NCBI RefSeq assembly: GCF_028641065.1
Contig: NC_073405.1
Location: 16,368,001 to 16,432,000, forward strand
Origin: Leucoraja erinacea
Taxonomy: Eukaryota
DNA: 64,000 nucleotides
Reading direction: 5' to 3'
Numbering within the stretch: position 1 is the first letter of the stretch; each line of letters begins with the position of its first letter. This document shows, piece after piece, positions 1 through 61,700 of the stretch. The notes under the pieces were generated by a model. It worked only from the letters and a program-made list of their open reading frames with translations. It ran no database searches and was not told the DNA's origin. The translations under genes were made by a program, and so were the position numbers.

Positions 1-459
1 CCCGAGGGTCCACGGTGGCGAAGTTGCTCTCCTTTCTTTCCATTTGCTCCATCTTACTGATTATGTTCTTATTGCAGCTGGGGACAGAGATGGGGCCAGT
101 CCGGCTACATCCTGATGTCCCGGGGAAGGAACAACCACTGTGGAATCGCAAGCTATCCCATATTTGCTCTGATCTAAGTGCCCATGTTTCCGGAGATTCA
201 AACGTAACAGCTGTGGCAACTTTTAATTCAGCTTTTATTATAGATTGTGATTGTGATTGATCTACTTTCATTGCACAAAATCGTAGTCGTTTAGTCACAA
301 GAATGTGCTTTTAATCAATAAAACTTCCGAAGGCTGTCAAACTATCTTGCCTGTGCAGTTATTTACATTGCAAACCAGCCGAACTGACAAAGAGAGTAAG
401 GTTTATTTTCAGCAGCAGAGTACATGGGGAAGGAATTAGTAAAACGAGGAAATATCTAT

Positions 460-562
460 GGTTACACAAAAAAGCTGGAGAAACTCAGCGGGTGCAGCAG
501 CATCTATGGAGCGAAGGAAATAGGCAACGTTTCGGGCCGCAACCCTTCTTCAGACCTTCTTC
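460..562 (-). mobile_element. Short Penelope-derived element with hammerhead-ribozyme core
   Basis: 13-bp TSD AGGAAATATCTAT (447-459 and 563-575). Minus strand reads AGGT-CTGAAGA-AGGGTTGCGGCCC-GAAAC-GTT-GCCT. Confidence 0.75.
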
Positions 563-1438
563 AGGAAATATCTATTGTGGGGCAGGACCAAATAACTTTA
601 AAATGGCTATTATGCTTCTTTGTATTAAATGTTGCTCACAGCAGGCTGCTGGGGTATGATTAGCACGCCAGAATGCATTAATAGAAAGGGAAAAAACGGA
701 ACCAAGAGTTGCATTCTATAATGGACCATGGGGGGTGGGGGGGGGGGGGGGGGGATGGTCTCTGTCGGTGCCAATTGTCTCCTATAACATAGATAGGTGA
801 CATTTTGGGTTAAGACTTCTTCAGACTCAGTCTGGGACTAGGCCCTGAATCCATGTGAGTTGATGGCAAGCCTGCTGGTGGCTGCAATAGTGGGAAGAAT
901 TGGTGAAGTCAATGGTCGTGACCCGCAGGCTGCCGGAGTGCATGTGAGATGGCACATGTGGCCTGGAAGTGGCCGAGGACACTGTGTGGGCTGGCAGTTG
1001 CAGTAGTGGGTCCAGCCTGAAGTGATCGGGGAGGCAATGTGGGTCGGGGGTGGTGTTGCCAGCCATCAGTAGGTCCGTCCACTGTAACTAAAATCAGTTT
1101 TAAAGAGGTCAGTTGAAACAAGGGTTTACTGTATCATGGATTGGAAGGACAGGGAGGAGAGTGCACCAATCTTCACAATGACGCCCCCTACCTGTGATTT
1201 TATGGAACAAACGAGGATTTAATTCACAAACATGGCACTGCTGCCCACAGCATTATACCTCAACATTTTAAGAAGCTTTTGATTCACAAAGAAGAGATGT
1301 TCTAAATTGCGGACACTGTGCCTCGATAGGAACTCTTTAGATAAACGCTCCAAGTCTACACATCTACTCCTTCAGACTGTAGATGCTAGTAAAACTAAGT
1401 TACCAGCAGGAAGATGCATAGATTCAGAGGGGCCAGTG

Positions 1439-1591
1439 TCACTCCTTGGACCACAGGCGTGCAGAGATGGTCGGGCTCCACTCACTGGGTTGGCCATTGT
1501 CAACAAAATCCTTTGCTGCCACTTGTACAAAGTACACTGCTCTGGATCGCAGACCACTCAGAGTGTAGTTGGTGAGATTGTTGATCTCAAT
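1439..1591 (-). CDS. EBI3: EBI3-like exon 6: second FN3 domain end, WSXWS-like PSEWS, stop
   Basis: 153 nt, phase 0. IEINNLTNYTLSGLRSRAVYFVQVAAKDFVDNGQPSEWSPTISARLWSKE*. No transmembrane segment or GPI tail, so secreted. The six exons total 924 nt (307 aa). Confidence 0.9.
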   Translation of the reverse strand: MEINNLTNYTLSGLRSRAVYFVQVAAKDFVDNGQPSEWSPTISARLWSKE

Positions 1592-1670
1592 CTGTGGGAC
1601 ATAAAAGGAAGAATTAATCCAAAGTCCAAAGGCAATGTGGACACCAAGAAATAGGATATTGCTCGACGGT

Positions 1671-2100
1671 TTTAGTGTGGTTTAGTTTATTGTCGCTTGT
1701 ACAGTGAAAAGATTTTGTTGCCAGCTAACCAGTCAGTAGAAAGTCAAAACATGATTACAATCGAGCCATTTACGGTGTATAGAAACATGATAAGGCAATA
1801 AGGTTTAGTGCAAGGTAAAGCCAGCAAAGTTGTATCAAAGTTGTATCAAGGATAGTCTGAGTGTCACTAATGAGGTAGATAGTAGTTCAGCACTGCTCTC
1901 TGATTGTTCTAGGATGATCGGTTGCCTGATAACAGATGGGAAGAAACGGTCCCTGAATCTGGAGGTGTGTGTTTTCACACTTCTATACTTTGCCTGATGG
2001 GAGAGGGGAGAAGAGGGAGTGGACAGGGAACATTCACTCTTGTTTATGCTGCTGGCCTCACTGAGGTAGCATGAGGTCAATGAGGCATTGAGTCAATAGA
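1671..2100 (-). mobile_element. Rex1/Babar-like LINE 3' fragment
   Basis: Minus strand encodes ...YRSVKTHTSRFRDRFFPSVIR, a Rex1-type C-terminus. Confidence 0.65.
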
Positions 2101-2107
2101 AGGAAGC

Positions 2108-2350
2108 AGGGTCTCAAACCCAAAACGTCACATATTCCTTTTCTCCAGAGATTGGACCTGTCCTGCTGAGTTATTCCAGCACTTTGTGTCTATCTTCAAG
2201 AGATGGGAGGTTGATTTGTGTCTGAAGTTTAAGTCTGAAGAAGGGCCCTGACCCGAAACGTCACCTATCCATGTTCTCCAGAGATGCTGCCTGGCCCACT
2301 AAGTTAATCCAGCACTTTGTGTCTTTTTATGTACACCAGTTCTACATCTG
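2108..2350 (+). mobile_element. Two Penelope-terminus-derived short repeats; the second has an intact hammerhead core
   Basis: CTGAAGA-AGGGCCCTGACCC-GAAAC-GTC-ACCT at 2235-2266, followed by the shared 'ctccagagatgctgcc...ccagcactttgtgtct' tail. Confidence 0.7.
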
Positions 2351-2773: not shown

Positions 2774-3003
2774 TGTAGGAAGGAACTGCAGATGCTGGTT
2801 TAAACCGAAGTTAGACACAAAAAGCTGGAGTAATTCCGTGGGAAATGTAGCATCTCTGGAGAGAAGGAATGGGTGATGTTTCAGGTCGAGACCCTTCTTC
2901 TTCAGGCTCTGAAGAAGGGTCTTGACCCGAAACGTCACCCATTCCTTCTCTCCAGAGATGCTGCCTGTGTCACTGACTTACTCCAGCTTTTTGTGTCTTT
3001 CTT
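2774..3003. mobile_element. Inverted-repeat pair of Penelope-derived short elements
   Basis: Arm 2808-2905 is the reverse complement of arm 2909-3003. Hammerhead core at 2909-2936. Confidence 0.75.
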
Positions 3004-3362
3004 CAGCACTGTTCTATGTTCTATATTTTATGAGACCATTCCCACACTATGTCGAGGGCCCACCGCAGATCGATGTGTGAAACCTAATCATTGTGGTATC
3101 CAAAAGTCAAAAGGAGTCAAGAACGGGTGGGGGTGATACTAATTAGACTGGCAGAGGGAGGTGGAAGCCTGGCGCAACAGTTAAAACTGATCCCTTGAGG
3201 TCGGGAACTGTGCAGGTCAAGTATCAGAGGGAAACCAAGTCAAGCAACTGTTGGTGAATGGGGTTGGGTCTATGCCTGTGGCTGGTGCAGTTGGATGAAA
3301 TAGTCACTGATAACCTGCATGGTGTCCTCCAACTGCGCTTTGCTCAATCCTCTTCTTGCTCT

Positions 3363-4248: not shown

Positions 4249-4626
4249 AGACAATAGACAATAGATGCAAGTGTAGGCCATTCAGCCCTTCGAGCCAGCA
4301 CCGCCATTCAATGTGATCATGGCTGATCATCTCCAATCAGTTCCCCGGTCCTGCCTTCTCCCCATATCCCCTGACTCCGCTATTTTTAAGAGCCCTATCT
4401 AGCTCTCTCTTGAAAGCATCCAGAGAACCTGCCTCCACCGCCCTCTGAGGCAGAGAACTCCACAGACTCACCACTCTCTGTGAGAAAAAGTGTTTCCTCG
4501 TCTCCGTTCTAAATGGCTTACTTCTTATTCTTAAACTGTGGCCCCTGGTTCTGGACTCCCCCAATATCGGGAACATGTTTCCTGCCTCTAGCGTGTCCAA
4601 GCCCTTAACAATCTTATATGTTTCAA
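4249..4626 (-). mobile_element. CR1-type LINE 3' end
   Basis: Encodes ETYKIVKGLD...SRTRGHSLRIR...FFSQRVVSLW...FKRELD, with a short-repeat (TATTGTC) tail. Confidence 0.85.
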
Positions 4627-7147: not shown

Positions 7148-8155
7148 CTATCTATGCCCCTGATGATTTTATAAACCTCTGTAAATTCAATCCTCGGTCT
7201 CCTTTGTTCCAGCGAAAGCACTCAGCCCAGCCAACTCAAACACCCCTGTCCCAGCAACATGCTTGTGCGTTTTTCTACATGCTCTCCAGTTTAGTCACGT
7301 TGTGTCTATTGTGGGGCGACCAGAACTGCAGACAATATTCTAGGTAAGGTCTCACCCCCATCCTATACAGCTGTAACACGACAGTCCAACTTTTGTCTAG
7401 AAGGAACTGCACATGCTGATTTAAACCAAAGATAGACACAAAATGCTGTAGTAACTCAGTGGAACAGTCAGCATATCTGGAGAGAAGGAATGGGTGAAGT
7501 TTCGGGTTGAGACCCTTCTTCAGACCCTACTTTTCAACTTTTGTATTCAATCCCCTGTCTCATGACGGCAAATAATCTGTGTACATTCTTCATTACATTG
7601 TCTACCTGTGTCATCCCTTTCAGAGATCTGCTCTGTTCTGCAACACTCACCAGGCCCCAGTCATTTCCTACATATGTTCTGGCCCAATTTAATCTCCCAA
7701 AACACATCACTTTGCATTCGCCAGAGTTAAATTCCATCTGTCATTCCTTTGCTTGTTTTCCTAGTTGATCTAGAAACTGTTGTAACCCTAGACACCCTTC
7801 TTCACTGCCCAGCAAACCACCAATATGGTGCCTTCTGCAAACGTACATATTATCCTACTACCAACCTCCTGACTCCTTCCACAAAGGCAATTTTGTATCC
7901 AACTAGCTAATTCATCCTGGATCCCTTGTGATCTCACCTTCCAGACCAGTCTACCATGCAGGACCCTATCACAAGCCTTGCTGAAGTCCATGTAGACACC
8001 ATCCACCACCCTGCCCTCATCAATCTGCTTTGTTACCTCCTCACAAAACTCAATCAAATTTATGAGACATGACTCCCACAAACGAAGTCCTGACTATACC
8101 TAATGAACCCTTTCGAAATGTCAATAAATCTTTTCCTCTTAATCTCCTCCAGCAA
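7148..8155 (-). mobile_element. Old CR1 LINE (RT region), interrupted by a Penelope-derived short element at 7397-7534
   Basis: Minus ORFs SCLINLIEF..VDGVYMDFSKA and MEFNSGECKV. The insert is flanked by TSD CAACTTTTGT (7387-7396 and 7535-7544). Confidence 0.75.
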
Positions 8156-21103: not shown

Positions 21104-22040
21104 CTGGAAAAAAAGGAAGCACAACAAATCAGCTCACTAAATCTCAACTTGCAGGTAGAAGTTCAAAGTAAAATCTCTCACACACAACCACAAACAAAGT
21201 TTTGGCAACAAACAGATGCTGGCTTACAAATAAGACATAAAGTTGCGGAGCAACTCAGTAAGTCAGGTGGCTTCACGGGAGAACATGGATAACTAACATT
21301 TCAGGTCAGGAGACTTTGTCAGACAAAAAAAGATTTGTCAGATATTCCCCGCAATTTTGAACATTATCAAGGGCTAGCAACTCATCGTGGCTCCGGAGTG
21401 TTTTTTCTTTCATCCAAGCTAGCTATGCATATCATTTGGACGTATGAAGTTATGAAGCTTTTGGAATTGCCATGTTACAAACAAAGCATTATTTACAGTC
21501 TGCTATCACAGGGGGAAGAAAATCCCTCGGCATAACTCAGTAGGAAAAATGCATTTTTCCCTGTGCCGTGGCCGATAAATATCCTTCAGCAATGGGGAAA
21601 AACTAAATAAAATCATTTTTCTTTGTAATTTGCAACAATTTTCTATGTTAAATTTCTACAATAGGAGTATTTGCAGTTATTTTTCTTTCTGAACCAGCAC
21701 AGTCAGGATATTTATTCAACAATAAGACATCAGTTAGCCCTTGGAACAATTTTTCCAACTTCTTAAACTGCAGTTAGAAGCAATAGAAAATGATATTGGG
21801 AATTCATCATGGTCATCATTATTCACCTTCCAGGGGCCCACCCCATCTGACCAGTCAGAGTCAAAGCCTGTCAGGATGGAATAAACCATAAATCAGTAAT
21901 AATTAGCATTGGAGGCTATCTGCTTCCAGTGGAGACTAAATCCCTGAAAGAGTTATGTTACAAAAGAACCATTCTAACAAATGTAATTCTGATTCTCAAT
22001 CAATGTATCATGTAACTCCAGGTCAAACTGAGCTCCTTAC

Positions 22041-22106: not shown

Positions 22107-22705
22107 CTGTCAAGAGAAAGAGTTTTATTGGCCCAGACAATTATATTTTACAACTAATTGGTTGAGAAGATCCGTATGTGACTAAAATTTATTGCTCGTC
22201 CTTAAAAGCTGGCTGGGAGACAAAAGAGTTCCGCACGTCTTGAAAAGGTGATCATTCTACCCCCAGGAGGCAGTGGAAGCAGCTGTTATTGATTAGTTCA
22301 AATACAATTAATTCATATTCATGCCAGAAAATAATCTTTTACAATAGAGTTCAGGGATAATTTGAGATATGAAGAGTGTAAGAAATTTAGGAGTATTAGG
22401 TCGCCTAAAGCCTCCCATTACTGAAATTTTTCCTCAGTTCCATAGAACAATAAGCCAGTTCAGTATTCCGATAAATGCAAGGAATCATGGGGTTTGTCAA
22501 AGGTCATTTGGGGGAAATAAAGCAAGGGGGGTGCCAGGTAGCGGGAGAGCGGGATGTAACAGCGAGAGAGGGGGCAGATGCGAGTGGGAGTCAGGAGGAG
22601 AGGCTGGACCAGCGGAGAGACGGTGAGAGAAGGTGAACGACGTGCATGGAGACAAGAGAGGGTTTTCAGTTAGACAGACAGAGTCAGATCCTCACAGATA
22701 TGAAG

Positions 22706-22938
22706 GCACAAGCGACTGCAGGTCTCGATGGTGGAATCTTGAGCAAAACACAAAGTGCTGGAGAAACTCAACAGGTCAGGCAACATCTGCGGAAGGAACG
22801 GATAATGTTCGGGTATGCGCCTGTCTTCAGATGGGATCTTGCTCAGTCTGAAGAAGGGCCCCAACCCAAAACACCACCTGTGCATTCCCTCCACAGATGC
22901 TGCCTAACCCGCTGAGACCCTCCAGCTCTTAGTGTTTT
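22706..22938. mobile_element. Degenerate inverted pair of Penelope-derived short elements
   Basis: Same arms as 2774-3003; the hammerhead core at 22848-22878 is degenerate. Confidence 0.6.
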
Positions 22939-23051
22939 TCTCACAGATGAGTTTAGTTTAACATTCCCCAGGGAGTGCCGGGGTTTGCATGTTGGTTGCG
23001 GAGGAGGGCAATGTCCCCCAGTCCCTCCCTCCAGTCCGGGGCTGGGCGATG

Positions 23052-23082
<31 letters not shown>

Positions 23083-23097
23083 TGCGGGTGGAGGGAT

Positions 23098-23710
23098 TGT
23101 CCTAGCGCTTCATGCTAGAGTTCTTGCGGAGACGGGTGAAGCCGCGATAGCGAGTTCCTCTCTCCCCATCTCTCGCCCCACCACCTCGCCTTTACAGGCG
23201 GCACTATTTTATGAACATTAATTCGATCTTATTTCTATCTCACTTCACAAACCCACCCTCTGGAATTCCGCAGAGCCTCCCCGGCAGCGTTGGAGGACTC
23301 TCTCTCTCTATCTGTCTCTCTCTCTTACTCTCTCGAGTTTAATCAATATTTGATAGGGTAATCGTAGGGTACCCCGTTTATTACCGTGTAGGAAGGAACT
23401 GCAGATGCTGGTTTACACCAAAGGTGGACACAACGTGCTGGAGTAACTCAGCAGGATCGGCAGCATCTTTGGAAAAAAGGAATCGGTGACGTTTCGGGTC
23501 AAGACCCTTCTCCAGAGATGTTACCTGACCCGCTGAGTTACTGCAGCATTTTGTGTGTATCCCCGTTGATGACTGATCCCTTTCTGTATACTTTGACAGC
23601 CTTCCACTGCAATCTCTGTGTTGTGTGCAAACTTACTAACCAACCCGCCAATGATCCTACTTGGCACCCTGAGGGAGTTCCGCGACCGCTGGGCACCGAG
23701 GGGGGTTGAA
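23098..23710. repeat. Diverged duplicate of 60941-61313 (ANKRD24 upstream exon/promoter segment)
   Basis: Shared unique blocks TGTCCTAGCG, GTGAAGCCGCGATAG.GAGTTCCTCTCTCCCCATC, CCTCGCCTTTAC, GTTGATGACTGAT and GCACCGAGGGGG, plus the same embedded palindromic element. Confidence 0.75.
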
Positions 23711-24413: not shown

Positions 24414-25047
24414 CTACAAAAACAAATATAACAGACAACCATAACATGATTCTAGCCTGGAAGACTGCATTCCTACTGGGATCATTCTGATTAATTCATC
24501 TCTCTCTCTCTCTCTCTCACCCAATTTTAGATTCACACCGGCCTAATGGGAATGGGGTTAAAAAAATGAGGCAAATGATTTTGGTAATGGCTGTTCCTAT
24601 TAATAGCGATAGCACACTATTCATTATAGCAAAAACATAGATGTATATATTGAAGACAAAGAGAATAATATTATGGAAAAAAAATCATAAACTGACTTTG
24701 CTTATATCAAAGAACATTCATAAATTAAGTAATGGAAAATTTACTGAGGATTAAAAATTACATAAATATAGGAAATGACCTGGACTAAATCAGGGGATGA
24801 TCACATAACAATCCCATGTGCCTGCCTGCAAAATGTAGCACATCATCAGATTAACAAATGCAATTTTAAAACCACAGTAGTTGGTTGCCAGTGGTAACAC
24901 GGAACATTAATGATTCAATGATTAATGTGCAGGAATTTAAATACTACCACTGCGGAATTTAAATATGAATTATTAATTAAGTTTGGACTAGATAACCAAC
25001 CCAATAATGATGGTAACTACCAGATTGTTGTAAAAGCACATCTTAGT

Positions 25048-25133
25048 GAAGGTAGGCAAAAATGCTGGAGAAACTCAGCGTCTATGGAAAGAAAGAATAG
25101 GTGACGTTTCGGGTCGAGACCCTTCTTCAGACT
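25048..25133 (-). mobile_element. Penelope-derived short element with intact hammerhead core, inserted in an old SINE-like repeat
   Basis: Minus strand AGT-CTGAAGA-AGGGTCTCGACCC-GAAAC-GTC-ACCT at 25133-25099. Confidence 0.7.
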
Positions 25134-25407
25134 AGTTCACCAATGTCCTTCAGCGATGGAAATTAACCACGCTTACCCAGTGTTGCTTTTATGTGACTCC
25201 AGGTCAGGTAGTGTACTAGAATCTGTAAACCTGAATAGCTGGTCAGGCAGTAAGAGTTCAAATCTGACTTTGACATGTTAATAAATTGAAATCTTTGAAC
25301 CAGACAATGTGCAGAATTGATTCACCAGGATGTTCCCAACACTGGGAAGGTTTAGCTATTGAGAGATGTTGGCTAAGCTGGGAGTTGCTTTCTTTGTTGG
25401 AAGAAGA

Positions 25408-28750: not shown

Positions 28751-30299
28751 TGTTAATAACTCCAATGCTGGTGTAAAAAAAAATCCCACATCCTTAGTGC
28801 AACCAAAGACAATGCATAGTTCATAGGTTAGTATAGTGTCACGTCAGATGGTTGTGGGGAAGAAGATATCCTTGAACTTGGTGATCCCAGGGTTTAGAAT
28901 TCTATGACCTTTTTCCTGATGGTAGATACAACTGCAACGGGATACAATTATCAATGGGAACTTCATAAAGGAATTGTGTTGATGCAGAATGGGGATCACA
29001 TTCTCACCCAGACAGCTAGTTTGGTTCTTAGGAGTAGATTAGATTAACATTCTTCATTAATGGGCGTGCAAGTCTCTGGCAAAACCAGCCATTCAATTCT
29101 ACAGCCTTCAGAAAGTACTCACTGTTTCACTGCCTATTATCACAGCAACACACTTTGAATTTAATTTAAATCCCCACACTGTCATAATGTTCCTTGTTCT
29201 CCCTTAGTTCCAGTTCTCTTGAATCTGGCTCACTAACATACCACCCAATATCTAGCTCACTAACATACCACGTCCCATCACCCCAAGTTAAACATAGTGC
29301 CTTCCCTCAACATCCCACATCCCTAACAGCCATAATCTCTTCTATCTCATCAACCATTAAGCTATCGAGAAGATAGACATGAAATGCTGGAGTAACTCAG
29401 TGAGTCATGAGCAGCATCTCTGCACAAAATGGATAGGTGAAGCTTCAGAATTTTTCAAGCTATTGAACTACACTGCACAATCCTAACCACAACCCTAACT
29501 CGACCTAGAATGGACTCTGTTTAGATTGCATGACGTACTTCAGTTTGCATTATTATGGTCTATTTACTTGGTATTTGCTGATCATTTATAGTATTATTGA
29601 TTATTGTATATTTATTTGTTGAATTGTGGTGTTAATATGTCTGTGAAGGTGTACCAAGTAAGAATTTCATTATTCTGTTCCCTGTACATAGGCAAATTAA
29701 ACACTGTTGACCCGGACAAATATGATGAGCAGACCCCACACTGCATTCTTTACAATCTACCCCCAACCTACAGGCAAATATTAGAATTATAAACCTGATA
29801 ATAAGTATAATTTCCTCAATCATTTACTTACTAATGATCCAAACCTGTAAGCCACCAGCCATTGTACAAAGTACAGTGTGAATGGCGTGTAAATGTAGTG
29901 AGCTGAGGAAATAAGTACAGGCAGGAAAGGGACATCTCCCTCTGTTTCGTATTCACTTCAAGCAGAAAGTACTTGATTAAACCGGTGTAAATTAGGAAAA
30001 GGTAATAAAATATTGAAATGCAGACAAACTAAGAGTACTTGACCTTCATAAATAAACTAGTTTAAATGTTATCAAATACATTTGAGTGCATAAATCAAGG
30101 TCAATTGGAATGTCTGGGAAAGTGATTTGTTGGATACAATATGTGGAATTTGCTGGAGGTCAGGAAGAACTTCATCAAAACTCGATGTACTCTCCTGAGG
30201 TCTGGACAGCAGATTTTACAAGTGTTATTTGGATTAGTGGATCCAGAGGCAATCACAACTTTAGGTGATAATAATAACCTGGGTTTGAGTATTGGGCAG

Positions 30300-32451: not shown

Positions 32452-32561
32452 CTGCAAAAATTAGGAAACTGCTTAAATATACAAGGGACGTCTACTTTAA
32501 TCTCAGCGTCTCAACTAATTCTCTCCTCGCCCAAATTAACTGATCAGACTAACTGGTTATT

Positions 32562-32657
32562 CCTTCTCTCCAGAGATGCTGCCTGTCCCGTTGAGTTACT
32601 CTAGCTTTTTGTGTCTATCTTTGGTTTTAAACCAGCATCTGCAGTTCCTTCCTACAC
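32562..32657 (+). mobile_element. Short Penelope-derived element (truncated)
   Basis: 11-bp TSD AACTGGTTATT (32551-32561 and 32658-32668). Confidence 0.75.
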
Positions 32658-32745
32658 AACTGGTTATTTATCTCACTTCTGTTTCTGGAAATCTTCTGGG
32701 CTGTAATATACTGTATTAGTATATTACTAATATGACTAATACTAA

Positions 32746-45285: not shown

Positions 45286-45344
45286 CTGCAAAAAAAGAGA
45301 AAAATTATGCAATATGCAAATGCACAAGTTAAACTTAACATTAA

Positions 45345-45398
45345 AGGTACACAACATTTTGTGTGTACCTTCGATTTTCCAGCATCTGCAGTTCCTTC
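45345..45398 (+). mobile_element. Very short Penelope-derived insertion with hairpin
   Basis: 16-bp TSD TTAAACTTAACATTAA (45329-45344 and 45399-45414). Confidence 0.7.
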
Positions 45399-45652
45399 TT
45401 AAACTTAACATTAACATGAACTATGTATAGGAAGGAGTTGCAGATGCCGAGAGTATGAGTCGAGGGCAAACTCGCCAGAACACGCGGATTAGGTCGGCCA
45501 AATGGGACAGGCCCTTTAGTTAGGTTGAGTGTTTTCTGAAGAGTCCCCAAACCTGTCGCATGGTCACTGCACCATGCTGTCATTCCATAGGTTCATTGTC
45601 AACACCACACGTCAGGCAGAAGGAAGAGATGGCAACTTTGAGAAACACTGAC

Positions 45653-49305: not shown

Positions 49306-49979
49306 TACAGTCAAGAGTAAAGAAAATGTAAATATTATACCTGAAAGGGGGACCTCAGTTATATAGAGATCCTGGAAAAGATGGGATAGTTCTTAAAGCA
49401 GAGAAGATGAAGGGGAGTAAAAATAAAAAATGCTGGAAACATTCTGTAGGTTGGGCAGCATCTGTGTAAAGAATTCTGATGACGGATCTTCAGCCTGAAA
49501 CATTTTTCTCTTACCAAAGATGCTGTCCCATCTGCTGAAAGTTTTTTCTTTCATTCCTATTTTTTTTTCGGTCAGACTCTCATCATCTGCAATTTTCATT
49601 TCAAGACGAAGTCGAGATTGGAAAGAGGTGTTCACTGCAATCAGGGGTAGGTCATTCCATATTTTTAATTTATCTTTTAACAGTGCCAATTTCCTGCACT
49701 ACTACCATATCCCTTGATTCTTTTAAGATTCAATAAAAATCTATGAACTTCTTTTCTGATTATAATCTGCCCTGCTCTGGGTTATGGAATTCAAAAGATT
49801 CACTACCTGTGTAATGAAATGTCTTCTTCTCTCTGTGCTGAATAGTCATCTGTAACTAGGAGATACTCCAACTCAGAATCTACAATGTTTACTCCCCTAA
49901 AGAATACTCCATGTGTCCATGCTTTTGGTGTCCATGACTTCATGTAAGAGATCACTGAACGTCTTGCAGCAATGGATCC

Positions 49980-52262
49980 AGATATTCAGTGCTGGCAAGA
50001 GGGCTTTCAAAAGTGAGATGGCAAGAGTACATGGGGAGCATGTTCCTGTTAGGATGAAGGACAAGGCTGGCAAGTTTAGGCAACCTTCGTTGACGAGAAA
50101 TATTGAGGCTCTGGTCAAGAAAGAAGAGGTATACGTCAGATGTAGGCAGTGAGGATCAAGCGAATTTCTCTGCGAGTATAATAAGTGTCGGAGTAAGCTT
50201 AAGATAGTAGTCAGGATGGCAACAAGAGGACAGTAAATGGAGCAGGTAGGCAAGGTAAAGGGAAATCCAAATAAATGATACAGGTATGTTAAGAGTAAAA
50301 GTGTGGCTTTGGAGAAAATACGTCCTTAGAAATCAGCATGGCCATTTTTATGGAACTGCAAGCGATGGAAGAGATATTAAATTAATACTTATTGCTCGTT
50401 TTTACTGACGAGAAGATCCCAAGGAATCGAGGCATAGGAGCGTGATGTCTCAGATCATATTCAAATTACCAAAGTGGAAGTTTAGGTAGTTTTAAAGCAA
50501 ATTAAGATGGATAAATCCTGAAGGGCAGACCAAAATCATCTTCATATATTGTGGGAAGTTAGGGATGAAATTACAAAGGCCCTTGAAGAGATATTTGCAT
50601 CATTGCTAGCCACAGGTGAAATTGCATAAGACTGAGGATGATTAACATTGTATCATTTATTAAGAAGGACAGCAAGGACAAGCCAGGAACCCATTGGTCG
50701 GTGAGCCCGACATCAGTGGTGGGTAAATTGTTGGAGGAGATTCTGAGGGACAGGATTTACCAGCAATTGGAAAGCCATATAGTAATTAGTGATAGTCTTT
50801 GTGGCTTTGAGCATGGGAAATAGTGTCTTACAAATCATTTTTGAAGGGGTCACAAAGAAGATTGATGAGGGCAATGCAGTGGATGTTGCCAAAGTGGACT
50901 TTAACAAGGCTTTTGGCAAGGTCCCACATTGTGGGGTTGTTTTTAAGATTAGATCGCGTGGAATCCAAGGCAATTTAGCCAATTAGATTCAAAACTGACT
51001 TGGAGGAAGGAATCAAAGAGTAATTGTGGAGGAGGAACTGCAGATGCTGGTTTATACCAAAGATAGACATAAATTGCTGGAGTAGCTCAGCGGATCAGGC
51101 AGCATCTCTGAAGAAAAGGAATAGGTGACGTTTCAGGTCGGAACCGTTCTTCAGACTGTGATGTTTCGGGTCGGAAACCTTCTTCTGTCCAACCCAAAAT
51201 GTCACCTATTCCTTTTCTCCAGAGATGCAGCCGGACCCACTGAGTTACTCCAGCATGTTGTGTCTATCTTCGGAAATTGTGAAGAGTTGTTTTTTTGATT
51301 GGAAGTAAGATTATCTAAGTTTGCAACCAGATCTAGATCACTTGGGAAGAAGGTAAACCAAGGAATGGCAAATGGAATTTAATGCTGATGAATGTGAGGT
51401 TCTGCACTGTCAAAGCAAGGCTGGATTAACACAGTAAATGGTTCAATACAGGACATTGTTAGAGTGACCTGGGGGTACACGTGCATGGTTCTCTAAAAGT
51501 AAGGCAGACAATGTGGTGAAGAAGGTGTTTAGCACGCTTGCCTTCATGGAAAGCGAATTGAGTATAAAAGTTGGGACATCATCATGCAGTTGCACAAGTC
51601 ATTGGTGAGATCACACTTGGAGAACTGTATGCAGTTCTGGTCGCCCCACTGCATGGGGTTAGGAGGGAGAGATAGATCAGCCATGATTTAATGGCGGAGT
51701 AGACTTGATGGGCCAAATGGCCTAATTCTACTCCTATATCTTATGACTTTATGACCTCATGCAGGAACCCAGTCACTAAATTGGAAAGATTGCAGAAGAG
51801 ATTCACCAGGAGGTTATCTGGGCTTGCAAGCTTGAATTATAGGGAGCGGTTGGATGGACAGGGGATTTTCTTCTTTAGAGCGCAGCAATGACCTTATTGA
51901 AGTGCCTAAAAACATGAGTAACATGAATAAAGTGAACACACACAATCCTTTTCCAGGGTAGAAGATTCTGAATTGCAAGGGCATAGCTTTAAATGAGAGG
52001 AGAGCGATTTGAGGGGGACCTTTGGGGAGACCTATCTACTTTGAGGATATTCTGCATCTGAAGTGACTGGTCAGAATAAGCTGTAGAACCAGACAGAGTT
52101 ATGAGTTAAAAAAAACACTTGGACAGAAATATGGATGGGAAGAGTTTAGAGGCTTATGGACTAAGTACAAGCAAATGGTTCCACCCAAATATGCCAACTT
52201 GGTTGGCACGGATGATTTGGGCTGTCAGGCCTGTATCTGTGCTGTACAGCTCTGCGACTCTA
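49980..52262 (+). mobile_element. Old CR1 LINE (endonuclease-RT linker, RT, 3' end) with nested insertions
   Basis: KKDSKDKPGTHWSVSPTSVVGKLLE and IDEGNAVDV..DFNKAFGKVPH motifs; many frameshifts. Confidence 0.8.
51032..51274. mobile_element. Palindromic Penelope-derived element with tandem hammerhead-like cores, nested in CR1
   Basis: Near-TSD AATTGTGGAG / AATTGTGAAG (51022-51031 and 51275-51284). Minus-strand cores at 51157-51121 and, degenerate, 51187-51158. Confidence 0.75.
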
Positions 52263-53514: not shown

Positions 53515-54425
53515 CCTTGTGCTCCCCAAACCTACATCCGAGACACCTCACAAGCTCTTCACCACTTCAAAAACTTCCAATTCTTTGGCCCCCCCATCAC
53601 TTCATCTTTACCATGGATGTCCAGTCCCTTGTACACAAAAACTCAGCGGGTGCAGCAGCATCTATGGATTGAAGGAAATAGGCAACGTTTCGGACCGAAA
53701 CCTTTCTTCAGACTTCACCCTTAATACATCCATTCCCCATCCGGAATGCCTCCAGGTCCACCATTTCTTCCTAGAACAGAGACCCAAACAGTTCCCCTCA
53801 ACTAACATTCTCCTTCACCTGGCTGCACTTTTTCAAATTTCTTTTGATTCCTCTCACTTTCTTCCCGTCAAATGTATAGTCATGGGTACTCGCACGGGCC
53901 CCAGCAATGCCTGCCTTTTCGATTGCTACATTGAATACACCGAGTTACAAATGTACCCCAGCACCATTCTCCAACTCGTTCTCTGCTACATCAATGACTG
54001 CTTTGAGGATGTCTCCTGCACCATGCGCAACTCTATCTCTATGCTCCCCTCTACTCCATCTTTGAGGAAGGTCCCCCTAGTCCTCACCTTTCAGCTAATC
54101 CTCCGTCAAACACCCCCCATATTGTCCCCCGGGCACTTTCCCTTTGCAACCGCAAGAGATGCAACACTTGTCCCTTTACCTCCCCCATCTCTTTTACTCC
54201 CCTCGTCCGCTGCTCTAGATGTCAGCAGATCTATATAGGTGAGACCAAGCGGAGGTTGGGCGATACTCCATTCAACTCCCCCTCCCACTCCCGCCTCCGA
54301 CCTCTCTGTCTGAAGAGCAGGGTCCCAAGCTAAAAATTCATGTCCTTCTATTTCCTCTCATAGATGCTGCTTGGCCTGCTGAGTCCTTCGGCATTTTGGC
54401 TTTTGCTCAAGTTTCCATCATCTAC
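53515..54425 (+). mobile_element. Degraded Penelope-like retroelement (RT and GIY-YIG remnants with 3' terminus)
   Basis: TYIRDTSQALH, FTMDVQSLYT, SIPH, MGTRTGPSNACLF, YINDCF and IYIGETKRRLGD motifs. The 3' part (54309-54425) resembles the short repeat family. Nested short element at about 53631-53714. Confidence 0.8.
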
Positions 54426-55929
54426 GGTCATTTATGTCTCCATCAGTCAGGAAAATCTAGTAGGATTCCCAACACGCCCTTCCAGCAGCCCAAGTCAGCA
54501 AGGCACTCAGTCTGACACGGGAGGTGCAGAGAGAGGGCTAATGGGATTGCTTGCTTGGGAGTTTATCAAATACATATTTTGAAAACATTCCCTTTCAATA
54601 CAGAGGTAATAAATGACACCATGTTTCAAACAAGGCATCGCCAGAGCTATCATGCCCAGAATTATTCAGAGAAACACAGTGTAACATTTTTCATTCCAAA
54701 TTCATTGAAACAATAGACAGCAACAGCCCAACTAACAATATGCACAAAGTCCTTTTTTTAATTTCACCAGGCTGCTGATTCATTACTTCCCAATCTACAC
54801 TGGCAGCCAAGGTTTATTTACCCTCACCCATTACTCACTGCCATCATGTTATGGTCAGGTGCCTACCATTATCAGACAGGCTCTTTTGAGGGCTCCCTCT
54901 CGTTCATGATGGCAGCATCTCGACAATAAGAAAAGCACAGAAAACAAATGCGAGCGAGTCACAAAACATTGGTGACGGCTAAACTGGTTTCCAAACCTCT
55001 CCCTGGAATCTTTGTTCTATTATTGCACGATCCAATCCAACTACCACCTCCCCCAACCCACACCTTCAGCTCTCTGGCGAAGAATACTGCTCTAATTTTA
55101 GGATAGCTTATTTTCAGTTCCTCCTCCATCTCTCACTCTATAGTTGGAAGATTTCAAAATGTCAGCAAATGTGGGGGAAAAAAAGTAAATTACCTGCATA
55201 AGATCAATTGCAAATTATAAACTCATCATTTATTCAATATTTCTGAAATGCGTGTCAAAACCAAGGATAAAATGCCACCATCTCTTTTAACTGACCCATC
55301 TCCCTCTATCTGCCCACTTTGAGGAGATTTTTCCCTGGTTAAAAGTAATCTGCCTCAGTGGAGCACGTCATTTCAGTGTGAGTGGGCTTAAGGAACTTAA
55401 GAAGTTACTTACCATGGCAGTCAGAACTATGTTCCTTTCATGTCCAGCAAAGCAAGGGTGAGCACACAGTTTACAGTAAGAGATTGAAAATAGATGTCCC
55501 CCACTATCACACAGTTCTACACTAGTCAGCTGCCGGTTGGGCTGGATTCAGTCTGTTCAATTTTTTAACATTATACTGAACATCCTGAAAAAGAGAAGTA
55601 GATTCTTGCTCCGCTCCAGCTAGTTTGTTCTCACAGGTAATTGAACATCACTATTCAAAGAGGCAGACTTTTCACAAGGAGTTTTCTTTCAAAGTTCCCC
55701 TATTGTTTGGAGAGGGGGAACCAAGGTGTCACCTGTGTAATGATGTAATACCGGATTAGGAGCTGCCTATTCCGCCCCTCAAATGCAATGCATTATTCAT
55801 TTAGATCCACAGTTCTCAACCTCTTTGAATGAGATCTCCACTTGTTTACACATCAGTGATCCCCTCCCTAGCAAAAATATAACCACCAGATAACGTCACA
55901 GCCTGCACCTTTTAAGAAGCTGGGCCAAT

Positions 55930-56345
55930 CCCAACAAACTGCTGGAGTAATTTAGCAGGACAGGCAGCATCTCTGGAGAGAAGGAATGAGTGAACTATCG
56001 AGTCCAGACCTTTCTTCAGAGTGAAAGTCAGGGGAAAGGGAAATGAAAGACATAGACAGTGATGTAGAGAGATATAGAACAAGTGAATGAAAGATATGCA
56101 AAGTTGATAGCCCTATTACTGGGGCCTAGATAGACACAAAGTGCTGGAGTAACTCAACGGGTCAGGCAGCATCTCAGGGGAAAATGTATAGGTGACGCTT
56201 TGAGTCCGGTCCCTTCTTTAGACTGAAGAAGGGTCCCAACCGGAAACGTCACCTTGCCATTTTCTCCAGAAAAGCTGCCTGACCTGCTAAGATACTTCAG
56301 CACTATGTGTCTATGTTTCGTGTAAACCAGCATCTGCAGTTCCTG
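55930..56345. mobile_element. Penelope-derived short elements (single arm 55935-56025; palindrome 56129-56343)
   Basis: Inverted arms. Plus-strand core CTGAAGA-AGGGTCCCAACCG-GAAAC-GTC at 56223-56250. Confidence 0.7.
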
Positions 56346-56394
56346 GTTATTTCTATTGCTGGGGCATGCCATGCAAATGTTTATCTATTTTCGC

Positions 56395-56672: not shown

Positions 56673-58989
56673 ACTTTCTTAGATAGCTTTGATATTATTA
56701 AATCCTCACAAATCCATTGACAGAAAAGTGAAAACAAGCGATACTACAAATGCTGGAATCTGGAGCAAATAAAATGTGCTGCTGCTGGAACTCAGTGGGT
56801 TGAGAAGCACACGTGCATGTAAAGGGATGGTCAATGATTCGGGTTGAGACCATGTATCAGGGTCTTACTATCAACCATGTGAACAAACTGGCACTGAAAG
56901 ATTGTCTGTGGAGATGGAGGACTTTTTTGAAATATACAATGTGTGTTGTGTATGAACACCAATTGTGAGAGGGAACAGGGAGTTCAGATTTAATGTGCAC
57001 CATTGTTCCTGTGTAGTAAACATGTTACACAGCGCATACATCAAATGCCATATATTTTTCTCCATTATTTATCCTTTCCTCTCCAACTCCACCCCATTGC
57101 CAAACACATTTCCATAGAGAAAGGACAGGAATTATAGCCATTGCACTCCCTTCCACTCAACCTCACCTCCAAAGACCAAGCAACCATCATGTATCCATGC
57201 TTGAACTACACCCACAGCAGACAACAGATTACATTCAACCAACCTCAAATTTCCACTTCTAATGGAGATTAATAATTAGGAAACTTGCATATTTGACTTC
57301 TTAAATATAGGTAAGGTACCCCAGATCTCAGGAAACCTGCCAACAACAGGAAGGTGAGAAAAGCAGTGTAGCAACACTGACCTTCCTTCCTTGATACTTT
57401 GCTTCTCTTCCCATGATTTGTTCTTAACCCAAAGGTTACTGATTCTGCAACAGCCCCACCATCAGCTGGTTGCGATTTCTCTTTGGCTGCTTCTTCTCCA
57501 ATCCCACAATAATTTTGCCCTTCTGCGTTCTCTGCTCTGCAGCAGAGGTTTTCCATCACACACCTTCATTCCCAACTGCTAGCCAAACCAAAAGGGGGAA
57601 AAGGATAGGCAACCAAGCCCTCATTCTGATGGGCAGCTTTGCATGTAGCAGCATCAAGCTGTGTGTAAAGCCAGGGTATAAAACTGTACGTGTCTCCACA
57701 TATCGGTTCAACCCATGCCTGGTGTTGCGAAAGATGCCCCTGGCCTTGTTGCTGCACAACGTTCTCTGGTGTCCTGTACCTTCTTGTACGATTCATTCAA
57801 AGCTCTGCTCACTCTTCCCAATTCCAGCCGACATTGGGCTCAAAAGCCACATAAAACCAACAACAAACAGATAATGGTGATCGCTGGGATCAGTAAATCC
57901 ATCTCACTCCTTCTGGTAACCCCACATAGCCAGCAGCTTTCAGACAACAGCCGAAAAATGTAAGAGCATCTATGGGCTGTTCCTATCATTAACACTATTA
58001 ATCTAGTGCTTTTCCTGTAAGGGTGAGGAACCGTTTTCAGTTACAATTAGAAAGTAAACAGAGTTTGGAAGAAACTAAGCTGCTGAATAACCTAGTGGTG
58101 AGTTGAAGTGGAAGCATAATTGAAACTGAAAAGCAATGGAAGGCAATGAATTATTAATTATGAGCATTGAGTCATTCACAAAATTCTTCCAGTCATCACA
58201 TTACCATTGAGACTGAGAAACCAAATTACATTCCTACCTGAGCCCTGCCGAGGGATGATTTGTATTGTGTGCTCTGAGTAGAGTATAAGTGATGCTACCT
58301 GATATGAAGAGATAGCAAACTTCCTCCTTTGATGGCCATTAATGCTCTATATATGCCAATGAGACTCTTAAGGTTGAAGTTAAACCCTCCATATTTGTGT
58401 AAGATTAATAACACTAGGGCAGGAGGCCATTTTGGTACCAAATACAAACAAATTATAGAATGGGAACAGGGCACGGTAGATACTGGTTTACAAAAAAGGA
58501 TGCAAAATGCTGGAGTAACTCTGCAGGTCACACAGCATCCCTAGAGAACACGGATAGGTGACATTTCAGGTTGGGACCCTTCAGGTGACATTTCAGGTTG
58601 GGAACCTTCAATCTAAAACAGCTACTCCAATTGTTATTTGCCCCACCTACTTTCATTATTATAGTAAAACCGTTCTTGTCCAATTTTATAAGACCCCTCC
58701 AATCCTGACTTTACATCCTAATCCTACCATCAGAACCATCTAACCCCAATCCCACACCTGATGCCTCCTTGCCCTGATCCTACAGTCAGAAACCTCCCTT
58801 CCTAGAATCACTGAAATAATAAAGAAACCAATGCCAAGGTCCTCTCCTTGGGCAATTTCCCACGCATTGAGGTCCTAATTACACTCAGATAGCTCTGTTG
58901 GGCAGGTTGCACCATTCACAAGCCCAAGACCAGAATCCCAAGACAGACACTCCAAAAGAAGCTTGATCGTGATAAGTGATTACCTGATG

Positions 58990-59160
58990 GACAGAGGAAA
59001 ACATTTAAGGATGACTCAAGTCTCTTTGAAAAAGTGCAATGTCCCCACAGAGCCTTGGAAGTGCCTGGACAATAATCTCTCAAAGTGGAGAAGGAGCACT
59101 TGGGATGGCATTCAGAACTTGAAGTTCATGCATCAGGAATACATAGGAGTCCCATTTATA
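58990..59160 (+). mobile_element. RTE-clade LINE C-terminal remnant
   Basis: SLKKCNVPTEPWKCL...KWRRSTWDG resembles RTE C-terminal 'LKxxxI...WE.LA.DR..WR' motifs. Confidence 0.45.
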
Positions 59161-59789
59161 TGACATAAAACACCAACTCCCAAGTTATCTGCACACCTGC
59201 TTCACCATGCATTTGTCACAGCCCGAGAATCTACTTCCCATAGGTGTGCACTTAGCGAATCTCATCTGAAGCTTTAGATGGACTAATGATGTGGAAGTCA
59301 CAGATTAGTAAGGCGGGATGGGGATATTGCACAGGAAATCAGCAAGTTTCCCATTTCTGATTTTCATGGACCCAAGTAATCTATGCTTGGGTATCTGGTA
59401 AGGACTGGATAAACCCCTAAAGATGTCATTCACAGTTAACGAGCCCACCAACAGGGCATATAGGGTACAAAGTGAAAGGTTAGCTGGTATCAGTGTCTTT
59501 AGTGTATAACTAGTGAATATTGGAAAGGGATGAAAATACTATTAATCGGAAAACAATTTACTCTATCAACATTAGATTTCCAGCTAACCTCTGGTGAAGG
59601 TGAGAAAGTAAAAATTAAAATACATTCATTTATTCATAAAAAGGCAGCAGACAGTAAGCTGGTGTCATCAGGGCAGCTTATGTTCCCTCTGCAGTTTCTA
59701 TGGAAGCGGTTTAAAGTGTCACATTTAACCCTCTTTCAATTTGCATCTTCTGTATCAACAGATGGTGAGCTGAGGAAATAAACACTCAC

Positions 59790-59825
59790 CTCACTTTTCT
59801 TGAATTTCGCTTTTAAACTTTTCAT
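59790..59825 (-). CDS. ANKRD24: ANKRD24-like coding exon 1a: N-terminal amphipathic helix
   Basis: MKSLKAKFKKSE then GTGAGT donor; matches N-Ank N-termini (RAI14 MKSLKAKFRKSD, ANKRD24 MKTLRARFKKTE). Acceptor AG at 59884-59883. Confidence 0.85.
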
Positions 59826-60965
59826 TTTTTTGAGTGTTTTAGTCCAACTCCTGCCTCTCTTTGGGATATTACGAGCTGGAAACTGTGGAAAATAAAACAT
59901 ACATCAGTAACCCAGCTGGTCAGAGATCAGAAGCTGTACAGATTGCATTTCAATAACAGTTGAACGCAAATTCCATGTCCTTGTTTAAATGGACAGTGAT
60001 TACTTTAATGTACATGGTAGGAGTGGTCAATCACCCCATTAATATATGTGAGGGATTAGTTATTTTATAATCACATTAATGTGCAGGAGGCACAAATAAC
60101 TCTAATATACATACAGAATCAATTTGTCTGCAATATACACATGGAATTTATTGGTCATTTTCTATTCTTTATTTTCAATACTGCATAAATATGTTCTAAT
60201 ATACATTAAGATATAAGCTACTTAGCATTGCTTGTAACATTAATAAGGGTATGTGCTCATCCCAAGAAGACACATGAGCCAGAGTGATTGCTATTAATTG
60301 ATGCAGTGGTTCTTATTAATGCAATGAGTGTAGATGTTCGGATTAACTGCAATGTCATCCACATTCACTCTCTCCACAGTTGAATGGCTTGCTGACACTC
60401 ACTGCATGCCACAGTTGTGTAACCTCCCAAAATGTACTGCCCTCTGAGTTTGGATACGATGCCTAAAAATAATTGCTTAATCTCAACTAATAGCCACTCA
60501 GGAAAATTGATTGGCATGATGCCCACTACTCATACTTAATCTCACGTGGGCTGTTTCTGCTGCTACACTTACTTCCATTGGCTTTGAATTGGCACTCAAA
60601 GCAAGGCCCTACTGCTACATCTGCCAACCTCAACTAGGCCACAAGCATTGCCCTAGAAACACAATAGGCATTCTTATTCAAGACCTTGCAGCATTTTAAT
60701 AGTTTAATATAGGCTAGTTGGATATTGTATTAAATCTACTAGTTTTCTGTAGTAACAAAATCAGAAAATGCTGGAAGCACCCAGCTGGTCCGGAAGCATC
60801 TGTGAAAGGAGAAACAGAGTTAATTTTTCCATGTCAAATACCCTTTGTCAGGTCAGAGCTGAATTTCTTCAAGGTTGGTTTTCAAGGTTTCTAAGATGAT
60901 TGGAATTCATTGGGAGTCATTGCAACCTGTGAAACAGTAATGTCCTAGCGCCGGGGAATTCTTAC

Positions 60966-61700
60966 GGAGACGCGGTGTCCGGGACTTGCAGTGAAGCCGC
61001 GATAGAGAGTTCCTCTCTCCCCATCCCTCTCCCCATCTCTCCCCATCCCTCTTCCCGCCGCCTCGCCTTTACCCACAGCCAGGTGTCGCTCGGTAGAAAG
61101 GAACTGCAAATGCTGGTTTACACCGAAGGTAGACACAATGTGCTGGAGTAACTCAGCAGGATAGGTAGCATCTTTGGGGAAAAGGAAAAGGTGACATTTC
61201 GGGTCGAGACCCTTCTCCGGAGATGTTGCCTGACCCGCTGAGTTATTGCAGCATTTTGTGTGTACCCGCGTTGATGACTGATGCTCAGCTTTCGCCAGCA
61301 CCGAGGGGGTTAACCGACAGCCACTGGATAAAGCGAGAGGTGCAGCTGACGTTCCCCGGCCCGTCGGGGAACTGGTTCCTCGGCAGTTGGAGCAGAATTG
61401 AGCTGGAGTTAGCCCTTTTTCCCTGCACTGTCTGTAAGCCTGGGGTCGCCACTGCTCCGGGCCGGTGTCCCATCAGTCCACAGTCACCCCAGACATCTCC
61501 GGCCGCCCTCAGACAGGGATGGGACACTCGGGAGGGGACGGCGACGATAGTGAGACTCAGCTCACAAATCTGCCTCCTGAGGTTATGTAAGCGAGGGGTG
61601 CATGGTTCGCCCCTGTATAATAACCCTGTATAACCCGGGAGGGCAGCCCGAGTGAGAATGGAACCCAAACACCCAGGCCGAGAGGGACTGGACCGTGATT
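60966..61700 (-). promoter_or_regulatory. CpG-rich putative promoter and upstream exon of the ANKRD24-like gene
   Basis: Local CpG/GC enrichment. Donor TCC|GTAAGA at 60966/60965 lies about 1.1 kb upstream of the acceptor at 59883. TSS cannot be determined from sequence. Confidence 0.55.
61093..61263. mobile_element. Palindromic Penelope-derived element inside the ANKRD24 CpG-rich region
   Basis: Same family as 2774-3003; its counterpart is at 23388-23558. Confidence 0.75.

Follow-up and report, generated by a model that had tools for sequence, protein, structure and literature searches.

The window analysed here is a stretch of 64,000 nt from Leucoraja erinacea, in which a 92-nt profile model gave 33 matches to one short repeat. 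A longer model, based on 40 long copies in which the repeat lies directly 3' of the end of a GIY-YIG ORF, gave 31 window matches merging into 22 loci. The initial annotation had claimed at least a dozen copies, many with a minimal hammerhead ribozyme core, and the number in the window is higher. The seven motifs it cited were correct in coordinates and strand (7/7), and all of them kept the 11 fixed core bases and H17. A strict descriptor (core, extra base and four contiguous stem II pairs) was passed by three of these seven (553-, 2908+ and 25130-) and by a fourth site at 7523-, giving four window sites vs 0-1 in 20 shuffles. The core was intact in 8/23 window fragments spanning the motif region. 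No tRNA genes were found in the window. The features are as follows, with signed positions referring to the model:

447..578, minus: pLTR stub of young subfamily A (-1..+103), intact hammerhead core, 16-nt TSD
793..830, minus: decayed piece of the hammerhead region (E=0.004)
2102..2330, plus: two stubs on the same strand, +3..+100 with broken core and -1..+98 with core intact at 2235
2774..3006, unstranded: head-to-head pair; the minus arm is tailed (+3..+130), the plus arm is tailless (+1..+100) and holds an intact core at 2909
7387..7546, minus: tailed stub (0..+126), core intact, helix III palindrome lost, 12-nt TSD
21212..21324, minus: old decayed stub (profile match)
22449..23577, plus: left part of a terminal inverted repeat (TIR) element, left TIR 22449-22469, cargo a fold-back pLTR composite
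22714..22942, unstranded: head-to-head pLTR pair within the TIR element, 9-11-nt TSD
23386..23565, unstranded: fixed fold-back composite of +1..+131 with +39..+99, G in place of A at core position A6
25046..25134, minus: stub (-2..+100), intact minimal hammerhead
29367..29448, minus: stub from +20, first half of core absent
32551..32668, plus: stub +34..+131 with tail, no hammerhead, 11-nt TSD
45329..45414, plus: tail-only stub and short inverted 5' piece, no hammerhead, 16-nt TSD
49426..49538, unstranded: old head-to-head pair (profile match)
51031..51275, unstranded: head-to-head pair and extra short motif repeat, inversion junction lying at stem II, intact core at 51154
53530..54429, plus: decayed Penelope-like element body; RT fragments 53530-54022, linker and GIY-YIG fragments 54127-54310, pLTR 54308-54429
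53638..53714, minus: stub of subfamily A (-1..+75) with intact core, inserted within the decayed ORF
55934..56056, minus: copy with ~36 nt of upstream pyrimidine-rich 3' UTR (profile match)
56126..56348, unstranded: head-to-head pair joined at the motif front, one arm tailed, 13-nt TSD, core intact at 56223
56742..56854, minus: old stub (profile match)
58467..58609, minus: tailed stub with 27-nt duplication of the motif region (profile match)
60762..60851, minus: old stub (profile match)
60941..61931, plus: second TIR element copy, right TIR 61911-61931, composite at 61095-61271
63951..63998, minus: tail fragment at the window edge (sequence match)

The repeats inserted as separate units with their own TSDs, as had been proposed. 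Four of the five TSDs claimed earlier were recovered, namely 447/563 (16 nt, 1 mismatch), 7387/7535 (12 nt, 1 mismatch), 32551/32658 (11 nt) and 45329/45399 (16 nt). Neither of two TSD scans detected the fifth, 51022/51275, where visual inspection gives at best a repeat of 10 nt with 1 mismatch. Additional TSDs flank 56126-56348 (13 nt) and 22714-22942 (9-11 nt). The TSD-flanked inserts at 32551 and 45329 contain no hammerhead in either case.

The repeat carries a minimal type I hammerhead motif of the Penelope type. Its majority sequence matches the core CUGANGA / GAAA / UH, with an extra base after A9, at every position, and an intact core was kept in 85/226 sampled fragments, most copies being decayed. 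The 15.2-16.2 palindrome, which would form helix III of a dimer, was CG in 41/66 long copies, and the remainder was mostly CpG decay. Stem I has about 2 bp and stem II 4-5 bp. A canonical hammerhead with a 6-bp helix I and loop contacts was absent, and the Rfam search suggested earlier was run: no hammerhead model matched the window (E<=5) or two element loci, L068 and L244 (E<=10), a result that is uninformative for minimal motifs. In subfamily A, pairing was kept by one-sided changes to G-U at 13/18, 14/17 and 1/30, and two-sided changes beyond CpG decay were not observed in the stems. In 66 long copies, conservation was 0.964 at non-CpG positions of the core and 0.943 at unsplit positions of the flanks (p=0.013). 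We do not count this excess as selection on the copies because the core is A/G/T-rich and anchors the alignment, and because the free position N7 is equally conserved (0.94). Monomer folds did not exceed shuffles in stability (z 0.56 to -1.21), and the hammerhead was not formed in the prediction; the hammerhead dimer was predicted at -6 to -7 kcal/mol vs -25 for other dimer folds, in a calculation that ignores core tertiary contacts. The hammerhead is a property of the parent element, and its cleavage would require a dimer or the help of a protein.

As a ribozyme the motif is nothing unusual. Such minimal hammerheads have been on record for Penelope terminal repeats since 2014, and the extra A and weak stem I noted earlier as caveats both fall within that description (Cervera and De la Pena, 2014; PMC4209133). 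In the portions of that paper covered, the Penelope motifs share with ours a type I core, an extra base between 9 and 10.1, a G10.1-C11.1 pair, a palindromic 15.2-16.2, a helix III without a loop and location in the pLTR. They are likewise mostly single dispersed motifs from truncated copies, with some opposite-strand pairs. The stems differ, being 4-5 and 7-8 bp in S. mansoni vs about 2 and 4-5 bp here, though a D. virilis variant has a helix I of 2 bp. Cartilaginous fish are not named in the main-text portions and supplements covered.

The repeat is the 3' terminal module (pLTR: a minimal hammerhead, then a tail of 30-40 nt) of an autonomous Penelope-like element. Elsewhere in the genome the same module lies ~110-125 nt after RT and GIY-YIG ORFs. 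The earlier suggestion of mobilisation by Penelope RT is supported. The ORFs are single and 710-1193 aa long. Three of them, when scanned, gave RVT_1 at E 1e-6 to 3e-6 and GIY-YIG at E 0.006-0.012, all under the Pfam cut-offs, while a shorter copy meets the Pfam GIY-YIG cut-off; the element protein has 1897 relatives at E<=1e-50. The decayed body at 53530..54429 in the window was recognised by tblastn (E=4e-25 and 1e-12), and the stub at 447..578 shares 96% identity with the terminus of a long copy that contains the ORF. The module also precedes the ORF start in partial tandems. Young full-length partial tandems occur, some 99-100% alike, with the ORF beginning 33 nt past the tail, and pLTR sequence lies directly upstream in 18/30 loci containing the ORF 5' region. 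With an RT and C-terminal GIY-YIG ORF, partial tandems, an optional tail and an inverted truncated copy, this is an EN+ Penelope-like element. A C-X4-C-X2-C linker between RT and EN and C/C/H/H residues in EN were read from the ORFs, and the CX2-5CxxC linker and CCHH trait is common to Neptune and Nematis in the parts covered of Craig et al. (2021; PMC8557442). By its linker and EN residues, the element may be of Neptune/Nematis type. The same parts describe a single ORF, a DKG motif, RT, C-terminal GIY-YIG, partial tandems, an inverted 5' copy, a 30-40 nt tail on one end and heavy 5' truncation, as here; tail, 5' truncation and inverted copy are known features of such elements. In contrast, no microsatellite targeting was evident at our TSD-resolved sites, and a sharp stop at the hammerhead front is not among the features that those parts describe. 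Our literature search, which took in neither Repbase or Dfam nor most subscription journals, found no paper on the element for sharks or rays, and it may well be catalogued in those sources.

The very high copy number proposed earlier was borne out by an 800-kb sample with 315 insertions, or 5.8% of its bases. At about 6% of sampled bases, the module is a major repeat of the L. erinacea genome. The strict descriptor had 55 matches in the sample, which extrapolates to ~150,000 genome-wide, compared with figures of ~4,000 for coelacanth and ~9,000 for Xenopus from a different descriptor (PMC4209133). TSDs were found in 35/301 insertions vs 0, 0 and 0 with swapped flanks, mostly 13-17 nt long and 63% A+T. 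The 3' ends formed two groups, at ~+95-103 and ~+125-131, and the 5' ends were concentrated at -3..+5. Among single copies reaching the hammerhead front edge, 79/149 stopped at -5..+4, a rate per base of 7.3% vs 0.5-0.6% at +11..+60. This edge is ragged across ~9 nt, and since the subfamilies diverge upstream of it, the pile-up can be inflated. Of only 10 single copies with a TSD long enough to fix the junction, 7 begin between -8 and +4. The 5' edge of the sampled copies had no G excess at -2 as a cap signature, and the RNA reads showed no position where many molecules start or end, in libraries not designed to reveal one.

Head-to-head pairs made up 58/315 insertions. The tail was on one arm only in 48/65 head-to-head cases, and arms within a pair were closer than across pairs (0.194 vs 0.256). 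At loci with template jumps, two successive copies stopped <=8 nt apart in 7/22 (1.8 expected, p=0.00025), and such concordant double stops suggest physical RNA ends. At locus L244 the -2 stop is present three times inside one TSD-bounded insertion. One locus contains head-to-tail units of -2..+268. A third, putatively jump-only landing zone lies at ~+265-340. Were every transcript to begin at the hammerhead front, copies with the ORF would be expected to stop there as well. Among ORF-bearing copies, however, 0/15 stopped at the front edge, compared with 5/12 among copies ending at +265-368 (Fisher p=0.01), indicating that longer templates or seamless strand transfer are also needed.

We consider it probable, at roughly 0.8, that the repeats are separately inserted 95-130-base end modules of this abundant protein-coding element, likely produced by RT starts near the tail and run-off. 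RT would start near the tail, at either of two fixed sites, before running off a template likely beginning at the hammerhead front, the shared start likely being the 5' end of the copied RNA. The element's own protein would carry out target-primed reverse transcription, and physical RNA 5' ends would cause the stop. The inverted arm may arise by fold-back priming at local near-palindromes, and template jumps may lead to ~+265-340. Given the same origin, the 5' pile-up could also reflect processing or pausing, i.e. RT stalling or endonuclease resolution at a 9-base near-palindrome at -3..+5, or a splice acceptor (a pyrimidine tract, then CAG). The 5' ends do cover the span of this conserved near-palindrome, many head-to-head junctions lie at it, subfamily B copies are predicted to pair via it, and in D. 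virilis the 5' end of helix I is where an intron ends (PMC4209133). However, with a fixed chance of stalling on every passage, ORF-bearing copies should show stops in their upstream pLTR; such stops were seen in 0/15, this pLTR extending far past -5 in all 15. Concordant double stops also occur off the palindrome, at -46, +46, +49 and -80, and the short copies among 110 anchored singles share no upstream exon from the element, as a spliced origin would require. We hold this version to be possible but rather unlikely.

More doubtful still is the idea that the stubs form a non-autonomous family propagating itself (SINE-like or as retrozyme monomers), in which short copies would be transcribed, the RNA copied in trans and the processing left to the hammerhead. 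Fixed ends, own TSDs, the head-to-tail units at one locus and the mobilisation of pLTR sequences in trans (PMC3846280) would fit such a family. In the RNA data (three raw runs with the same species label and one contig set), 11986 of 12.9 million reads of a poly(A) library (~0.09%) fell on a 701-nt element end, but the reads were about equal on both strands, as expected from read-through or an unstranded library. The reads likewise showed no circular RNA monomer, although such a form could escape them. Furthermore, the 5' ends of sampled copies showed no pile-up at the cleavage site, +30. Short and long copies were both present in all five sequence types, and the nearest neighbour had the same label in 78/142 cases vs 74.6 expected (p=0.34); this nearest-neighbour test, whose power on ~95 nt is limited, found no short-only lineages with private diagnostic changes. 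Same-strand tandems were 3/315 insertions, and the 55 strict matches included two same-strand intact-motif pairs within 1 kb (557 and 692 nt apart), so that no tandem retrozyme family was found in the sample. A dispersed retrozyme with the -2/+268 junction was also rejected because the junction is confined to one locus (3 matches genome-wide), and the core is mutated in the single form that was clearly amplified as a fixed unit. The distinct retrozyme-like family of the initial annotation is thus not upheld: the module is the end of autonomous elements, short and long copies are intermixed, and intact-motif head-to-tail arrays are no feature of the sample. Least credible of all is that the stubs are solo pLTRs, left where two terminal repeats recombined and the body of the element was lost. 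Partial tandems are present and recombination was proposed for TSD-less solo pLTRs in rotifers (PMC3846280), but the upstream pLTRs that pass far beyond -5 would leave longer solos, and head-to-head arms with a one-arm tail would be left unexplained.

The end modules resemble those of Anolis Poseidon PAc, which also has a pLTR hammerhead and two 3' ends bounding the tail, and for which RT was shown to start internally at the ends of the tail and the hammerhead to be assisted by protein (Frangieh et al., 2024; PMC11167929). Unlike here, the PAc ORF starts inside the hammerhead; our element in turn has the third, putatively jump-only landing zone. Animal non-LTR retrozymes are likewise non-coding, hammerhead-bearing and kin of the pLTRs of Penelope elements (Cervera and De la Pena, 2020, PMC7229834; Li et al., 2026, bioRxiv 10.64898/2026.07.22.740005), and were reported in the sole chondrichthyan sampled by Li et al. 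However, retrozymes come as 150-450 nt repeats arranged head to tail, typically contain canonical hammerheads and are expressed as circles, whereas ours lie dispersed, singly or in head-to-head pairs, and have a minimal motif.

Penelope insertion and terminal-repeat regeneration are still an open mechanism (PMC2377424, PMC11167929), for which exact coordinates are now provided by the junctions of the jumps, the near-identical full-length copies and the sharp stop at the 5' side. As a speculation, which we offer only tentatively, elasmobranch Penelope elements might make a discrete short RNA from the hammerhead front to ~+270 inside the ORF start. RT would start at its tail and run off its 5' end like a retroviral strong-stop, and the product would then integrate (stub), fold back (inverted pair) or jump to the RNA 3' end and recopy (tandem units, the seed of retrozymes). 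If this run-off from short RNA were true, genomic junctions numbering near a million would amount to an in vivo archive of the Penelope insertion pathway and of retrozyme birth.

The only pLTR form clearly amplified as a fixed unit was the fold-back composite, with two identical window copies (23386 and 61095) and at least 40 genomic matches at 89-94%. We rejected it as a true non-autonomous derivative, as it is cargo of the TIR element, which is non-coding, 1.1-1.5 kb long, bounded by 21-bp terminal inverted repeats and present in two copies in the window.

The repeat is real and abundant. All seven hammerhead motifs cited in the initial annotation were found in the window with intact cores, and a profile built from the window copies recovered 33 fragments of the module, the 3' terminal unit (pLTR) of a Penelope-like element (PLE). 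With a longer model, 31 window fragments resolved into 22 loci (13 single, 7 head-to-head and 2 same-strand). The core was intact in 8 of the 23 window fragments that cover the motif region, the seven cited ones included, and a strict hammerhead descriptor matched 4 window sites versus 0-1 in 20 shuffles. When the 2.19-Gb genome was sampled by eighty evenly placed 10-kb stretches of large contigs, 429 matches (394 of them on the module) covered 5.8% of bases; the same profile search gave 0 matches in the reversed sample sequence. After merging, 315 insertions were obtained (240 single, 58 head-to-head, 13 complex, 3 same-strand and 1 tail-to-tail), which extrapolates to about 860,000 genome-wide. 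That sample also contained 29 ORF matches 100 nt or longer. Target site duplications (TSDs), mostly 13-17 nt, flanked 35 of 301 sampled insertions under strict rules versus 0, 0 and 0 with swapped flanks, and 42 versus 4 under relaxed rules. In the window, four of the five TSDs proposed initially passed and that at 51022/51275 failed.

In our numbering, the T that directly precedes the hammerhead core is +1 and C3 is +2; the predicted cleavage site comes after +29, and positions 0, -1, -2 and -3 are the G, A, C and T preceding +1. The module majority sequence has a complete core, G10.1-C11.1, a palindromic 15.2-16.2, a stem II of 4-5 bp and a stem I of 2 bp. It also has an extra A after A9, which the initial annotation regarded as a caveat; in the accessible text of Cervera and De la Pena (PMC4209133), an extra base, the G10.1-C11.1 pair and the palindrome are hallmarks of PLE minimal hammerheads. 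The same text describes mostly dispersed single motifs, with no cleavage of monomers and low cleavage of dimers. Among 226 sampled motif-spanning fragments, predicted hammerheads numbered 85 by core, 75 with stem II added, 49 with the palindrome and 38 with stem I. Between the module subfamilies A (young) and B, we found one-sided changes that maintain pairing as G-U and 0 two-sided changes.

The end of a GIY-YIG ORF lay close by at 3 loci among 30 listed genomic matches to the module, and in further genomic copies traced from these loci the module was located ~110-125 nt downstream of the stop codon. A protein search scored 150 of 127,222 candidates. Pfam found RVT_1 and GIY-YIG, both below cut-off, in three ORFs, and GIY-YIG at cut-off in a shorter copy. 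The closest named proteins were those of Chiloscyllium and Rhincodon (68% each) and of Mobula (73%), which places the host among the elasmobranchs. The window itself holds one decayed copy:

53530-54310: RT and EN fragments, then the module

At 54271-54310 of this copy, the endonuclease region is joined straight to the hammerhead front via a short shared word, which marks either a deletion within the element or one more stop-and-jump event. In loci holding the ORF 5' region, the ORF starts 33 nt past the tail, and 18 of 30 such loci show the classical partial tandem. These tandems, together with certain copies that are 99-100% identical to one another, suggest from sequence that the family is young and may still be active. 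At locus L066 (3476-7054), the ORF of the young subfamily reaches ~1,250 aa because a long segment rich in proline and repeated internally separates its N-terminal region from the RT. The word 'Penelope' is absent from the main text of the skate genome paper (PMC10115646).

The module had been proposed to be a distinct, retrozyme-like family, and this was not supported. Classifiable single copies (n = 142) comprised 88 short and 54 long ones; both occurred in each of five sequence types, and nearest neighbours shared a label in 78 cases versus 74.6 by shuffling (p = 0.34). Moreover, retrozymes are defined in the available parts of PMC7229834 and Li et al. (2026, bioRxiv) by head-to-tail units, whereas 2 same-strand pairs less than 1 kb apart occurred among 55 descriptor sites in the sample. 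The module is not a retrozyme family.

Module 3' ends fell into two groups, at ~+95-103 and ~+125-131, matching the tail and two RT start sites of an anole element (PMC11167929). At the 5' side, 79 of 149 single copies reaching +4 ended by -5. The stop rate per base was 7.3% in this pile-up versus 0.5-0.6% at +11 to +60 and 0.3-0.5% beyond -46; the 2.4% at -6 to -45 is inflated by divergent 3' UTRs. Of 76 short singles, ~90% extended to +5, half to -1 and a quarter to -3. The edge motif is compatible simultaneously with an initiator, a splice acceptor and a near-palindrome of 9 bases. In head-to-head pairs, arm distance was 0.194 within insertions (n = 58) versus 0.256 between insertions, and a tail confined to a single arm was seen in 48 of 65 cases. 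Both features are consistent with fold-back priming, by which the inverted arm would arise as proposed for rotifer elements in the consulted portion of PMC3846280. Short internal tandem duplications of module pieces (33-70 nt units) without a complete core were seen at loci L057, L060 and L157.

It is the mechanistic clues in the junctions that give the repeat its interest. A search with the tail-to-ORF junction took in 30 loci and 10 more; its ranking favours segments reaching +268, and therefore shorter landing sites would go undetected. Twenty-four distinct segments ended within the ORF start, mostly at +265-340, and for 22 the following sequence could be placed in the element. In 7 of these 22 loci, versus 1.8 expected (p = 0.00025), successive copies began at most 8 nt apart; in three of the 7 they did so at -3 to +5. 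In the simplest reading, the RT would copy one RNA molecule repeatedly, each time up to its physical 5' end. One locus outside the window looks like a nascent retrozyme-type array made by such jumps:

L244:1010-2120 (G000:C21 near 21.288 Mb), both strands: single insertion with a 17-nt TSD and repeated -2 to +268 units

The -2/+268 junction occurred three times in L244 and nowhere else in the genome search. None of 15 copies covering 680 nt or more of the ORF region stopped at the edge, versus 5 of 12 ending at +265-368 (p = 0.01), which counts against all RNAs starting at one common site. According to the accessible section of PMC2377424, transcription in D. virilis begins within the upstream pLTR, 46 nt ahead of an intron.

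A poly(A) library of 12.9 million reads contained 11,986 that fell on the last 701 nt of the element. They were split about equally between the strands, and 94% continued into unlike sequence, which fits passive transcription of many copies. No site with many molecule starts or ends was seen in these 701 nt, and the library is uninformative on cleavage.

Near-identical fold-back pLTR pairs at 23386 and 61095 form an amplified unit with at least 40 genomic matches at 89-94%, across which the differences between the two arms are fixed. They lie within a TIR element of at least 40 copies:

22449-23577 and 60941-61931, also loci L158-L192: 1.1-1.5 kb, non-coding, GC-rich, with 21-bp terminal inverted repeats

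Because flanks on each side are common to both copies and the pairs sit inside this element, they did not move independently, and the composite, whose core also carries A6 to G, was rejected as a self-moving unit. No TSD of the TIR element was evident among 12 end pairs inspected, some of which face outward. One piece inside it looks to us like a tRNA-derived SINE head. At 61283-61305, it has a minus-strand hairpin with a GAAA tetraloop, conserved across copies; on the plus strand, where TTGATGA precedes it, the hairpin bears a loose hammerhead likeness without the GAAA core.

Elsewhere in the window, a 560-codon open frame (26690-28369, minus strand) had 0 Pfam matches at cut-off and Atlas matches to generic coiled-coil clusters with low recognition; it is likely a large coiled-coil exon of a host gene. 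LINE reverse transcriptase 3' fragments, which we take to be CR1-like, lie on both strands at 32746-33807 (RVT_1, E = 3e-14), 14716-15180, 4303-4624 and 8188-8364. The CPEB3 ribozyme model scored weakly at 31191-31268 on the plus strand (22.1 bits versus gathering 35, E = 0.24), probably by chance. Finally, several microRNA models matched a 68-base near-perfect palindrome at 63443-63510, each with a weak score below gathering.
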